A DNA stretch of 64,000 bases from a virus (taxonomy: Duplodnaviria; Heunggongvirae; Uroviricota; Caudoviricetes), in the IMG/VR virus record IMGVR_UViG_3300045988_163275, positions 32,001 through 96,000 of that record; one strand, 5' to 3'. This document shows, piece by piece, positions 12,334-32,013 of the stretch. The stretch's first letter is position 1. Each line of letters starts with the position of its first letter. Under the pieces are notes generated by a model. That model made no database searches, was not told where the DNA came from, and worked only from the letters and a program-made list of their open reading frames with translations. Made by a program: the position numbers and the translations under genes.

Positions 12334-13293
12334 ATGTTTGGTAATCTTTTCAAAACGGAAGAAACTAAGGCCCGGGAGGGCTTGGAGTCTCATTATCAGA
12401 AAGTCATGAGCTTCGTTGCTGAAAATGATCTACATGAAGCATGGGAAAAAACACGCAATATCATTTTTCGAAATATGGAAGTTAGAAGCTACATCACGCA
12501 AAACGGCGCGTTCGATCGTAACGATTTTTACTATAAGTCAGCCAAAGAGAAGCTTATTCAAAGCGCCTTCACTTCATACCTACTCATAAAAGTTTTACCT
12601 CAGTTCTATGAAATGCATCTCACCACTTTGAAAAGAAAAGAAAAAACACTCACAACACAGGATGAATACGGGGTCTGGAACTTTGACAAGTGGTTTGATG
12701 AAGTAGACTACTTTTATGACAAGGTAGTAAAAGAGAAAGTTTACGATTGGATCGAAGAGAACACAGGCCGGCTCAACAACCTTTGGTTGGCAGAGTCGGA
12801 GGACAAGAATGCCTGGGGGCGGCCAGTTTACTTTAAATTCCAGTTGCCTGAACAATTTGATCGCTGCGCAATAAATCACATTATGACGGTGGTAGACAAT
12901 ACACCAGAACCTGAATTACCTGAGTACACTTCGCTACTGACCGGGCACGAATATGAGCATTTTGTCGCTGGGGAGTTTATGAAGTATGGATCCGACACCC
13001 AAGTAACTAAGGGCAGCGGCGATCACGGTCTGGATATCCTTGTAACCTATAGAGAAGTTCGAATGGCTGTTCAGTGCAAACACTACCAGTCTAAAGTAGG
13101 CAACAAAGCTATTCAGGAAGCATTTTCCGCGAAACAGTTCTACGATTGCTCCCTCGCAATAGTAGTCAGCAACAGCGAGTTTACCCCTCACGCCAGACAA
13201 GCAGCCAAAAAACTGGACGTTTATCTGTATCACCATGAAGATATACACTTAATAATAGACGCCATTAATAATTGGCTGGATGCGCCGGAGTGA
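12334..13293 (+). CDS. Mrr-like (PD-(D/E)xK) restriction endonuclease-domain protein, N-terminal domain unknown
   Basis: C-terminal GSGDHGLDILV ... VQCKHYQSKVGNKAIQEAF ... IVVSNSEFTPHARQAAKKLDVYL resembles Mrr catalytic domain; plus-strand, AT-rich, amid minus-strand genes. Confidence 0.6.
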   Translation: MFGNLFKTEETKAREGLESHYQKVMSFVAENDLHEAWEKTRNIIFRNMEVRSYITQNGAFDRNDFYYKSAKEKLIQSAFTSYLLIKVLPQFYEMHLTTLKRKEKTLTTQDEYGVWNFDKWFDEVDYFYDKVVKEKVYDWIEENTGRLNNLWLAESEDKNAWGRPVYFKFQLPEQFDRCAINHIMTVVDNTPEPELPEYTSLLTGHEYEHFVAGEFMKYGSDTQVTKGSGDHGLDILVTYREVRMAVQCKHYQSKVGNKAIQEAFSAKQFYDCSLAIVVSNSEFTPHARQAAKKLDVYLYHHEDIHLIIDAINNWLDAPE

Positions 13294-13526: not shown

Positions 13527-14120
13527 TCAGTCACAGCAGAAGGAAGATCCGGAGTCGCAGGTCGAGCTGGAATCGTGTCCATCAGCATCCCATCCAGAGA
13601 GACAGGAGGTCGTTCGGGCAGGGGGGTCATCTGCAAGGCCGTGGTGGCAGTGGAAGTAGTTGTGCCCGGCATCAAAAGGCTCTGACCGGCTGGTACGGTA
13701 ACCGCTGCCAGAGTTGCCAAAATCACTCCGTAGGCCATTGGCTTCAGTCGATTTCGTTGAAAATTTTCCATGAGAACTGTCCTTGTGTGTCCGGGTTTCA
13801 CGCAAAACACGAGAAGCAACGCTATTACGCACCTTCTCCATGCCTACTGTCGTGCCCAGATTAGCTATGGCGGTAGCTTGCGCATTAATGCGCTTCTCCA
13901 GTTCAAACACTCGTTCTTCCAGTTCCGCAAGGCGTGCGGAAACACGACCACTAAACAGCTCGGTCAGCACCAGGCGAATTGAACGGGGACGTTTATTGAA
14001 AGAAGTGAAAGACGTTTGACGGGCCATGTGGATTCCATTCAGTGTCAGAAAGAGTTGCGGCTGGCCAAGCCGCCTTTTGGCGTTCCATCCTGGAACCGTA
14101 CCTAACCGGTACTTCGTCAT
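13527..14120 (-). CDS. hypothetical coiled-coil protein; 3' part overlaps an alternative frame
   Basis: ATG 14118-14120; N-terminal half has LAELEERVFELEKRINAQ heptads; C-terminal third is low-complexity and overlapped by frame 13514..13819 (signal-peptide-like protein). Confidence 0.35.
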   Translation of the reverse strand: MTKYRLGTVPGWNAKRRLGQPQLFLTLNGIHMARQTSFTSFNKRPRSIRLVLTELFSGRVSARLAELEERVFELEKRINAQATAIANLGTTVGMEKVRNSVASRVLRETRTHKDSSHGKFSTKSTEANGLRSDFGNSGSGYRTSRSEPFDAGHNYFHCHHGLADDPPARTTSCLSGWDADGHDSSSTCDSGSSFCCD

Positions 14121-14151
14121 CCTGACGATTTATAAGATACCTGATTTATTA

Positions 14152-14175
14152 TAGTAGGTAAATACTTACTTATCT
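14152..14175. promoter_or_regulatory. palindromic motif B copy
   Basis: TAGTAGGTAAATACTTACTTATC 32 nt upstream of ATG 14120. Confidence 0.5.
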
Positions 14176-14177
14176 TT

Positions 14178-14774
14178 TTATGACAAAAACCCAATGTCAT
14201 GCTTGTGAGGCATATCAGCTGCGGAATAGGCGGCGATCTTCGCCAGACGGTCACACATTTCGTTCTCGCGATGACCTGCATGGCCTTTAACCCACTTCCA
14301 GCGGACATTATGACGACTGGCGGCCGCGTCGAGACGTTTCCAGAGATCCACGTTTTTGACTGGCTTCTTCTCAGACGTGATCCATCCGTTACGCTTCCAG
14401 CCTTTCATCCAGAGCGTCATGCCGTTTTTAAGATACTGGCTGTCGGAATGCAGGATCACGTTGCAGGGGTACTTCAGACGCTCCAGCGCAATCAGGGCGC
14501 CCATCATCTCCATCCGATTGTTGGTCGTGCTGTGGAAGCCCTCAGAAAGCTCGCGCTCTTCGCCTCGATACTGGAGAACGATGCCGTAACCGCCCGGCCC
14601 GCCCGGATTTTTGAGGCAGGAGCCATCACTGAATACTTTTACGGTTTTGAGCTGGGGATTGAACTCGACTACGGGTGTGTTGAAATTGGTACGGGAATGC
14701 TGGTGGGTTTGGCATCTGGCTTTAGACTTCGTGCGGCAGCCAGTGCGTTGCCGGACTGGGTTCTTGGTCGTCAT
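14178..14774 (-). CDS. rnhA: ribonuclease HI with ~40-aa basic N-terminal extension
   Basis: [18 protein letters not shown] ... [11 protein letters not shown] ... HSDSQY ... [13 protein letters not shown] ... [15 protein letters not shown] match RNase HI catalytic motifs; ATG 14772-14774 with GGAG SD. Confidence 0.85.
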
Positions 14775-15368
14775 TTTGGCTCCAGAATCGTGCGCCGCGA
14801 CGATTTTTGTTTTCTCGCGCGTGTGCGCACGCGTGCGTGTAAATAATAAAAAATTTTATAAAAGAAAAACTTACTTCCCAGAACAGGTTTTAATAAAACC
14901 TGAACTGAACGAACGAAGTGAGTGAAGTTCACCTCGAACGAAGTGAGAGGTTGTCTTTTCAGGTAATACTCTCCCAGGGAGGTGAGTACAAAATTTCCTC
15001 ACCAACCTGGTCGTTTCATAACCTGAAAAGTTATGACCTAAGTCTACTGCCAGCTTAGGCTTGGGAAGTTATGGATGACAGCACCCCAGAACCGAGATCT
15101 TCCCACACTTTATGAAGGGGAGTACTGGAATCAACCTCTCGAAACACTCCAGACTCGACAATCATAAAGTGACCCTTCTCTCTGCTCACTTTGGTTCCCC
15201 CTTCCCCAACCCCTAAACGGTGCTGGTTCTACGCTGGTAGTGAGCTTTTTTAAACCTGACGCCAGTGACGCAATCCCCCACCCATCAGGTCGAGCTGCCG
15301 AAAGTATCCGGAAGCGGATAGATTGTATCACTGGTTAGTGGCGCTTTGAATGGTAAGTACTTACCTAT
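14775..15368. other. ~600-bp ORF-poor structured non-coding region
   Basis: alternating GCGCGTGTGCGCACGCGTGCGTG tract, AT-rich block, direct repeat CGAACGAAGTGAG x2, several inverted repeats; only low-complexity ORF 15131..15331. Confidence 0.4.
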
Positions 15369-15370
15369 TA
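15349..15370. promoter_or_regulatory. palindromic motif B copy
   Basis: TGGTAAGTACTTACCTATTA; faces the non-coding region. Confidence 0.5.
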
Positions 15371-15598
15371 TATTGATTGATTAATTTCTCGCCCATGCAG
15401 CTGGACATTCAGAGCAAACACCTCATTGATCAGCTCACCCAACAACTGCTCCACCAGTTCTATGTGCTCGCCTGAATGAAGACACTTGAGCGACCATTCG
15501 TAGAGACTGAAAGCCTTATCGCGATCTTTCATCATGTCGCGTATCTTGGCCAGAAAATCGCTCTCAACGAGCGCTACGACGTTCGTCGGGTATATCAT
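15368..15598 (-). CDS. hypothetical protein (76 aa)
   Basis: ATG 15596-15598 with AAGGAAA SD. Confidence 0.5.
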   Translation of the reverse strand: MIYPTNVVALVESDFLAKIRDMMKDRDKAFSLYEWSLKCLHSGEHIELVEQLLGELINEVFALNVQLHGREINQSI

Positions 15599-15737
15599 GA
15601 TAATTTTCCTTACTGTGGTTCATAAAATCGATTCTAGAGCGTCTGGAGAGGGACTCCAGTGGGTTCTGGAGGTGTAAAACGGTCTGGGAGTTGTTTGGAA
15701 ATCACGTCTTAAAAAGCCTGCGTCTGTATATATTAAT

Positions 15738-15755
15738 AATTAGTACTTAGTTATT
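15738..15755. promoter_or_regulatory. palindromic motif B copy (degenerate) inside larger inverted repeat
   Basis: TAGTACTTAG flanked by CCTGCGTCTGTATATAT / ATATATACGGAAGCAGG arms. Confidence 0.4.
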
Positions 15756-15800
15756 TATATATACGGAAGCAGGTTCTCAAACTAACTCCCAGACTGGTGT

Positions 15801-31996: not shown

Positions 31997-32013
31997 TATT
32001 TTTGCTGTTAATA

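Follow-up and report, generated by a model that had tools for sequence, protein, structure and literature searches.

A candidate gene for a large structured non-coding RNA upstream of rnhA in SSU5-like phage-plasmids

Large structured non-coding RNAs (ncRNAs) of phages and prophages are known from ROOL and GOLLD, which belong to Firmicutes or rumen phages and are Rfam families, and short ones from the c4 RNA of P1/P7 and the CI RNA of P4, which measure some 70-80 nucleotides (nt) and carry short complementary boxes that act just downstream in the same transcript. The locus considered here lies in a 64,000-nt stretch (the window) of the tailed-virus record IMGVR_UViG_3300045988_163275, positions 32,001 to 96,000, and is the gap of about 600 base pairs (bp) at 14775-15368 beside rnhA, the gene for RNase HI. 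By its sequence the window is that of an SSU5-like phage-plasmid: the stretch 14100-15700 is 94.7% identical to Salmonella phage SSU5 and is related to sequences of Klebsiella phage-plasmids and of Escherichia coli phage Cyrano (= pLF82). SSU5 and RefSeq plasmids have no annotation in this gap, where Cyrano carries a 44-amino acid (aa) 'hypothetical protein', CYRAN_81.

The preliminary description of this region had placed it downstream of rnhA, which is wrong: rnhA is on the minus strand (14774..14178), so that the gap sits between the stop codon of a 76-aa open reading frame (ORF) and the rnhA start codon, upstream of rnhA. Its two proposals for the role of the region, a structured RNA and a lytic origin, fared differently. 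Covariation (in alignment A2 and in the hairpin module H10-H12, both described below), a conserved promoter and published expression support the first. It is proposed here, with a probability of about 70%, that the minus strand from 15315 to about 14872 is an independent gene for a highly structured ncRNA of about 445 nt carried by SSU5-like phage-plasmids. The element matches no Rfam 15 family and is a new class of structured ncRNA.

Fold, strand and conservation of the RNA

The RNA and its parts are as follows.

14872..15315, minus strand: ncRNA gene of about 445 nt, its start inferred at G15315 and its 3' boundary placed at the limit of conservation
15294..15315, minus strand: 5'-terminal hairpin, clade-specific in sequence and conserved in pairing
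15253..15291, minus strand: hairpin P1, 15 pairs with 3 compensatory double changes, G·U intermediates falling on the minus strand
15073..15205, minus strand: multi-helix 5' domain (helices 4-8), closed by helix 4
14873..15069, minus strand: 3' domain, closed by ACUUCCCA/UGGGAAGU, 93-99% identical between clades
14952..15063, minus strand: hairpin module H10-H12, the best-supported sub-structure, described by covariance model R1
14910..14947, no strand assigned: 13-nt direct repeat, two copies flanking a short hairpin (CGAACGAAGTGAG on the plus strand, CUCACUUCGUUCG in the RNA)

For the 441-nt core, none of 100 dinucleotide shuffles folds as well on either strand (z = -3.7 plus, -4.2 minus). 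In alignment A2, comprising 41 distinct sequences in minus-strand orientation, the RNAalifold consensus has 128 pairs at -146.4 kcal/mol, as against -116 kcal/mol for a plus-strand consensus computed in-house on a slightly smaller set, and 99.7% of cells are paired. Among these related sequences nine of the 128 pairs (87 cells) are changed on both sides, compared with 6.0±0.5 pairs (23 cells) in shuffles, none of 500 of which reached the observed level, and with 0-3 pairs in slid controls. On the minus strand 22 pairs vary between Watson-Crick and G·U and only 4 to A·C, and a further 10 G·U pairs are invariant; this asymmetry argues for a minus-strand RNA and would be unexpected for a plus-strand RNA or for an element acting only as DNA. 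Judged from the alignments, compensatory and wobble-compatible substitutions preserve the helices, and these substitutions suit no transcript but that of the minus strand.

The helices of the 3' domain show no variation within the main clades and are uninformative there, and distant relatives were therefore sought through the protein of the neighbouring 76-aa ORF. Three divergent homologues were identified with nhmmer (loci L166, L163 and L161, the last 69% identical), and in all three P1, H6, H7, H10, H11 and H12 persist although their sequence differs; H9 persists in L166 and L163, not in L161. Across lineages H6 changes from CACUUUAUGA/UCAUAAAGUG to CACUGUAGG/CCUACAGUG, H10 from CCUAAG/CUUAGG to CCGGGA/UCUCGG or GCAGAGA/UCUCUGC, and H12 from GGUGAG/CUCACC to AGCG-GGG/CCC-UGCU. 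In the H10-H12 alignment (A6), which takes in the divergent lineages and was fitted to the model, 97.1% of cells are paired and 10 of 35 pairs are double-changed, against 3.4±1.5 in shuffles (0 of 500 reaching this) and 0-2 in slid controls.

The outer parts of the RNA behave similarly. The invariant G15315 opens the 5' hairpin, whose sequence differs with each clade while its pairing is constant: GCUUCCG/CGGCAGC in the window, GCUUUC/GAAAGC in pSTM_Phi, UUUCCAGUC/GACUGGAGA in Cyrano, GCUGGCAGA/UCUGCCAGC in Cronobacter and GAUUUCGA/UCGAAAUC in Klebsiella. In this helix 1 all cells are paired (100%) and 2 pairs are double-changed; a 5'-terminal stem is typical of stable RNAs. P1 is also kept in the divergent lineages. 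The 5' domain contains an invariant G-rich block, GGGGAAGGGGGAACC, and the GC skew of its RNA-like strand is +0.26 to +0.48. The 3' domain is almost invariant in the main clades, loops included, a level of conservation comparable to that of housekeeping RNAs. Within it the first copy of the 13-nt repeat forms the loop of a CCUC...GAGG hairpin, 12 nt separate the two copies, and in the alignment a near-identical second copy is retained in L161. As a separate observation, 14 nt of P1 (15262-15275, RNA sequence GAUUGCGUCACUGG) show 86% complementarity to the extended -10 region of the same gene (15321-15334); SSU5 preserves this in part and the E. coli clade does not, and it is probably due to chance.

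Conservation of the element stands apart from that of its surroundings. In a four-way alignment of Salmonella, E. coli and Klebsiella elements, positions of about 14872-15295 are almost invariant, whereas the flanking genes diverge. Between the window and Cyrano the 3' domain is 99.0% and the 5' domain 96.9% identical, compared with 81% for rnhA, 79% for the 76-aa ORF and 76% for the Dam methylase gene; for a Klebsiella phage the figures are 94% (3' domain), 90% (5' domain) and about 78% (flanking genes). The core is present at 90% identity or more in 686 PLSDB plasmids from Klebsiella, Escherichia, Enterobacter, Salmonella, Citrobacter and Cronobacter, and is carried by 232 of 5,426 complete E. 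coli genomes (4%), with 232 of 234 matches on plasmids; among the eight E. coli matches listed, no feature is annotated under the element. A scan of genome contigs gave three real matches (one in Buttiauxella, two in Kluyvera) and two chance matches. The Buttiauxella match is of a different kind: in B. gaviniae ATCC 51604 (57.8-kb contig L068, 4795-5163) a 387-aa ORF in which metallophosphoesterase-like motifs can be read by eye (GDTFH and GNHD) continues in frame, at its 3' end, into a 369-bp fragment of the element, 97.6% identical to window 14826-15193. The neighbouring ORFs, MFS-transporter-like and LysR-like by sequence reading, look chromosomal and not phage-like, and the fragment looks like a recombination remnant.

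Comparison with known RNA families returned nothing. No Rfam 15 family reached E <= 1 inside 14872-15315 when the region and 4 kb around it were scanned, and at E <= 10 with the region alone the scores were just 7-17 bits against gathering scores of 47-211; one such candidate, the Yersinia small RNA Ysr197, was rejected as noise (13 bits, gathering score 167). The covariance-model search that the preliminary description had suggested as a check thus gave no Rfam match, while the model built here for H10-H12 favours the minus strand, at about 135 bits (135.6) against 35 on the plus strand. No paper was found in the literature that describes the RNA of 14872-15315 or a mapped lytic origin of SSU5/pHCM2.

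Predicted promoter and transcript ends, and expression in the lysogen

Three further features bear on how the RNA is made and on what its product is.

15322..15350, minus strand: predicted sigma-70 promoter of the RNA, a 9/12 match with TG in the scan
15352..15365, no strand assigned: operator-like palindrome GGTAAGTACTTACC, 1 nt before the -35 box
15055..15189, minus strand: spurious 44-aa ORF equivalent to CYRAN_81, frameshifted or truncated in 13 of 41 distinct sequences

The promoter consists of a -35 box TTCAAA (15350-15345), a 17-nt spacer, an extended -10 TG (15330-15329) and a -10 box TACAAT (15327-15322), and the predicted +1 is the G at 15315, 6 nt past the -10 box. When nine clades are aligned the same arrangement recurs, namely a palindrome, 1 nt, TT[CT]A.., a 17-nt spacer of unrelated sequence, TGn, TA..AT, 6 nt and the invariant G, with TTn replacing TGn in the Klebsiella clade; the -10 box ends in two invariant columns within an otherwise variable stretch. 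At the other end conservation stops at an invariant CUGGGAAGUAA ending at 14872, and in most clades a U-rich tract comes next, after a long-range helix.

The palindrome had been named an operator in the preliminary description. This is plausible, as the motif abuts the -35 box and recurs genome-wide; it is not specific to this locus. The motif GTAAGTACTTAC, with two mismatches or fewer, occurs 18 times in the window against 1.3 expected (including sites at 2914, 9712, 14158, 15353, 16411, 21254, 21404, 22529, 27961, 32307, 46991, 53135 and 55937), a recurrence that makes operator a reasonable label. Three sites that were examined (14158, 15353 and a related one near 15745) are intergenic and lie beside TATAAT-like hexamers, and the set looks like phage repressor operators or a phage-specific promoter element. 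In other lineages this position, next to the -35 box or overlapping it, is taken by a different inverted repeat (for example TAAGTAAnnnnTTACTTA and AAATAG...CTATTT), and an operator in this position suggests control by a lineage-specific DNA-binding protein. Also in this vicinity, between the Dam gene and the 76-aa ORF (15708-15781), is a long inverted repeat, AT-rich and nearly perfect (CCTGCGTCTGTATATATTAATAATTAGTACTTAGTTATTTATATATACGGAAGCAGG), with a related palindrome, TAGTACTTAG, at its centre; its Rfam matches are limited to spurious microRNA families.

Published RNA sequencing (RNA-seq) of an E. coli LF82/Cyrano lysogen provides expression data of the sort that the preliminary description had named as a check. 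CYRAN_81, which lies inside the RNA (about window 15055-15189), is at 117 fragments per kilobase per million (fpkm), a gene-level count over 135 nt without strand assignment, whereas CYRAN_80 (the 76-aa ORF) is at 9.5, CYRAN_82 (rnhA) at 8.4 and CYRAN_45 (the putative repressor) at 96 fpkm, a pattern seen in all ten samples (PMC9928086, Table 1 and S1 Table). The segment is thus about 12-fold above both flanking genes and near the level of the repressor mRNA, and because CYRAN_81 falls within the RNA these counts point independently to a discrete transcript in the lysogen. In the same data set the top-expressed Cyrano feature is CYRAN_43 (OV696614, 40268-40822), a 'hypothetical protein' beside the integrase and repressor genes, at 723-fold above background and about 7,000 fpkm (PMC9928086); it may be an RNA or a toxin-type locus.

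The CYRAN_81 counts could also be taken to mean that the expressed product is the 44-aa peptide itself, annotated as a coding sequence in Cyrano and in some plasmids and covered by the RNA-seq reads. This is scarcely credible. The ORF begins with GTG and its frame is broken after about codon 14 in the whole Klebsiella clade and in others, it has no PHROG family, NCBI PGAP annotation calls no gene there, and conservation extends at least 130 nt beyond either side of it without a codon pattern. The region's description as non-coding is therefore borne out, this having been its sole annotated ORF. A hok/sok-type toxin was looked for as well, and the ORFs of 30 aa or more on both strands of the region have no long hydrophobic stretch on by-eye reading, made without hydropathy calculation.

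Several points weigh against an independent RNA gene of this extent. Its start is deduced from the promoter and its 3' end from the boundary of conservation; on the minus strand of 14775-14900 there is no canonical intrinsic terminator, the U-rich tract of most clades being all that was found; and the expression figure is a gene-level count for one annotated segment. For most helices of the 3' domain the support comes from three divergent lineages and a model-fitted alignment, and the extreme identity could come partly from lineages recombining where variable cargo begins. Complementarity above chance was not found within the 64-kb window, and no target, partner protein or phenotype was identified. 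The search for a second copy or an antisense target, which covered these 64 kb of a genome of about 110 kb, gave best matches no better than those of shuffled queries, and the rnhA start region was no outlier in a duplex screen of one translation initiation region after another, the output of which was uninterpretable.

The locus upstream of rnhA and a second RNA in the same slot

The genes between about 13.5 and 18.5 kb of the window are all on the minus strand and include rnhA, the 76-aa ORF, a Dam methylase and a DnaQ-like exonuclease. The immediate surroundings of the RNA, and its counterpart in other plasmids, are listed here.

14178..14774, minus strand: rnhA, the 3' neighbour of the RNA, encoding RNase HI with an N-terminal extension of about 40 aa (Pfam RNase_H, E = 6.5e-46)
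14804..14871, no strand assigned: spacer from rnhA to the RNA, with the alternating GC tract and an AT-rich block, outside the conserved RNA
15368..15598, minus strand: 76-aa ORF, the 5' neighbour of the RNA, assigned to phrog_5343 of the PHROG database
L154 2660-3145 (K. oxytoca plasmid pCAV1335-118): second structured RNA, about 480 nt, following the phrog_5343 homologue; also present in L155 and L157-L160

All the sequence features named in the preliminary description exist: the alternating purine-pyrimidine GC tract (CTCGCGCGTGTGCGCACGCGTGCGTGT, 14813-14840), the adjoining AT-rich block (14841-14870), the direct repeat (13-nt CGAACGAAGTGAG, exact copies at 14910-14922 and 14935-14947), inverted repeats (nine pairs of 9-26 nt) and the palindrome (GGTAAGTACTTACC at 15352-15365). 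They do not form one region, and are split over two separate things. The conserved structured element is 14872-15315, and the GC tract and AT block lie outside it, in a spacer (14804-14871) that is 78-86% identical to the non-SSU5 relatives compared and 94% to SSU5. The spacer was rejected as an RNA structure, since it folds no better than shuffles (z = -0.9), and the GC tract was rejected as a repeated regulatory motif, occurring once in the window; 14804-14871 is probably the 5' region of rnhA.

The 76-aa ORF is found 5' of the RNA at every examined locus with an intact RNA. Its product is predicted to be a three-helix protein and has no Pfam, PDB sequence or fold match. On the 3' side the RNA is independent of rnhA, persisting where rnhA is split or replaced. 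In L144 and L148 (1046-2992) the RNA is kept and rnhA is split by an insert of about 2 kb with two co-oriented ORFs of 222 and 315 aa, neither with a Pfam family; in L161 the gene 3' of the RNA is DUF7557-like and is followed by a Tad2-like gene; and in L108 and L118 a 99%-identical rnhA body occurs in another context without the RNA. Such exchange of rnhA, the two-ORF insert and the DUF7557 and Tad2-like genes makes the 3' side a spot of variable cargo, which may include defence or anti-defence genes. Elsewhere in the early region, window 12334-13293 on the plus strand encodes an Mrr-type restriction endonuclease domain protein (Pfam Mrr_cat, E = 2e-21) in roughly the place of the SSU5 antirepressor Ant, an accessory-gene swap.

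A position at the border of variable cargo invites the explanation that the element is a recombination anchor, its identity owed mainly to homologous exchange and its transcript incidental. The variable 3' region, together with the Mrr-type nuclease in place of SSU5 Ant, and the truncated copy fused to another gene among the chromosomal-looking neighbours of the Buttiauxella contig are consistent with this. It is nevertheless very improbable, for it leaves unexplained the compensatory changes, the G·U/A·C asymmetry and the retention of helices at 69% identity, as well as the conserved promoter and the presence of a second, unrelated structured RNA in the same slot.

This second RNA was found in more distant SSU5-like Klebsiella plasmids (30 in PLSDB), in which gene order and gap size are unchanged but unrelated sequence fills the gap. 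On the sense strand its z is -5.96; six sequences give 15 compensatory pairs and a consensus of -171 kcal/mol sense against -115 antisense, and a divergent copy occurs in L165. Its promoter, TTTACT-17-TATGAT, is set inside the different palindrome TAAGTAAnnnnTTACTTA, and some 110 nt before rnhA the RNA has an internal hairpin with U7 after it. It matches no Rfam family and shows no homology to the first RNA by nhmmer match, by shared k-mers above chance or by covariance-model match. In L159 and L160 it is kept although the next gene is on the opposite strand. That an unrelated RNA occupies the same slot favours taking the slot as an RNA locus, and argues against a pure leader function. A different arrangement was seen in Moellerella wisconsensis plasmid pNX2019-MW3 (L156, 3679-4648), where a 970-bp AT-rich gap with no annotated gene follows shortly after the phrog_5343 homologue, with one small hypothetical ORF between them and no rnhA; the gap has no similarity to either RNA type.

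A leader function deserves consideration all the same, and would mean that the element acts in cis on rnhA and the genes beyond it, the lysogen transcript ending or being processed before rnhA and antitermination or relief of attenuation allowing read-through on induction. Known parallels are the lambda pR'-tR' 6S transcript with Q and the put RNA of HK022, leader RNAs that are made constitutively and tied to antitermination, and leader attenuators. The RNA lies directly upstream of rnhA on the same strand, and its promoter is on in the lysogen, where rnhA is silent (117 fpkm as compared with 8.4), so that transcripts would have to end or be cleaved between the two. Beyond the invariant 3' end most clades have a U-rich tract, a complementary segment lies between the direct repeats such that alternative hairpins are possible, and the second RNA type has its hairpin and U7 before rnhA. 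Set against these, the downstream gene varies (rnhA, the two-ORF insert or the DUF7557-like gene), rnhA occurs without the element, the main RNA type is without a canonical terminator, and no Rfam leader or riboswitch is matched. The opposite-strand gene that follows the second RNA type in L159 and L160 means that it cannot be a leader there, and 445 near-invariant nt far exceed what known attenuators need. Regulation of this kind is accordingly judged unlikely.

Possible functions and comparison with known systems

For the independent RNA gene the following mode of action can be suggested. The RNA would act as an RNA, in trans, during the plasmid-prophage state, stabilised by its 5' hairpin and made from a promoter that might be tuned by a protein binding the adjacent palindrome. 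Action in trans is proposed because the RNA accumulates with silent neighbours and survives replacement of the downstream gene. Near-invariance of the 3' domain in stems and most loops points to many sequence-specific contacts and not to a short antisense seed, and the likeliest form would be a protein-bound or self-assembling scaffold, or a regulatory RNA.

Replication was the other role put forward in the preliminary description, and a lytic origin is unsupported by iterons, DnaA boxes, GC skew or substitution pattern. There is no iteron array, as only two 13-mers are present and Tandem Repeats Finder reports none in the region; the region has one 8/9 DnaA-like box and one GATC site, with the AT-rich block at 14841-14870; GC skew shows no turning point near 15 kb; and the wobble-compatible substitutions indicate selection on RNA and not on duplex DNA. 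The sole form of the origin idea that is still viable is a primer RNA, whereby RNase HI would trim an RNA-DNA hybrid (R-loop) into a primer for (lytic) replication, as for ColE1 RNA II or mitochondrial LSP/CSBII. A structured transcript of about 445 nt with a constitutive-looking promoter and an adjoining RNase HI gene would suit this, as would an invariant G-cluster block (GGGGUUGGGGAAGGGGG) with RNA-strand GC skew of up to +0.48 about 100-190 nt after the start, the AT-rich block following the RNA, and stems conserved at the sequence level. On the other hand, the plus strand of 15200-15320 has no antisense promoter or terminator of the RNA I type, there is no Rfam similarity (which would cover ColE1 RNA I if release 15 includes it), the RNA and rnhA can each occur without the other, neither a skew turning point at 15 kb nor an iteron or DnaA-box cluster is present, and the plasmids carry several Rep-protein replicon types with the RNA unchanged. 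A primer function is therefore considered improbable.

A broader proposal takes the phrog_5343 slot as a whole to hold interchangeable, unrelated RNAs of about 450-480 nt with operator-coupled promoters, serving an undescribed phage-plasmid function, either as a lysogeny, immunity or exclusion module or as an RNase HI-processed R-loop primer. This is offered tentatively and is regarded as doubtful; were it true, the R-loop primer would represent ColE1- or mitochondria-like initiation in a large tailed phage.

Clinical Enterobacteriaceae commonly carry SSU5-like phage-plasmids, which also spread resistance genes, and an RNA conserved like housekeeping RNAs and present at the level of the repressor mRNA in the lysogen is a candidate regulator of the plasmid-prophage state. 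Among Proteobacteria it would add a new class of large structured RNA, two unrelated classes in one slot offer a natural comparative system, and the locus illustrates that 'morons' scored by gene-level RNA-seq can be RNA genes.

In comparison with known systems, the element shares with the 6S RNA of lambda pR' and the put RNA of HK022 the character of a short lysogen transcript upstream of silent same-strand phage genes, but it has no canonical terminator, is larger and more conserved, and is followed by a variable gene, or in the sister RNA type by one on the opposite strand. ColE1 RNA II is likewise a structured transcript of about 0.5 kb with G-rich segments, and a role for RNase H is conceivable through the adjacent rnhA; the phage-plasmid RNA differs in lacking an antisense RNA I unit and any sequence or Rfam similarity, in its optional linkage to rnhA, and in residing on replicons with Rep proteins. 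With c4 and CI RNA it has in common that it is an ncRNA of a phage-plasmid made in the lysogen, upstream of same-strand early genes, which in SSU5 include the antirepressor Ant 2 kb downstream (Ant is absent from this window). Unlike them, it is about 445 nt long and has no above-chance complementarity in the 64-kb window, and c4 gave no Rfam match, if the family is in release 15. Like ROOL and GOLLD, finally, the element is several hundred nt in length, phage-borne and non-coding, with a multi-domain covarying fold. It matches no Rfam family at E <= 1, these two included if release 15 holds them, is shorter (about 445 nt) and is not next to tRNA genes; it is found instead in phage-plasmids of Enterobacteriaceae, and is expressed in the lysogen from what appears to be an operator-flanked sigma-70 promoter.

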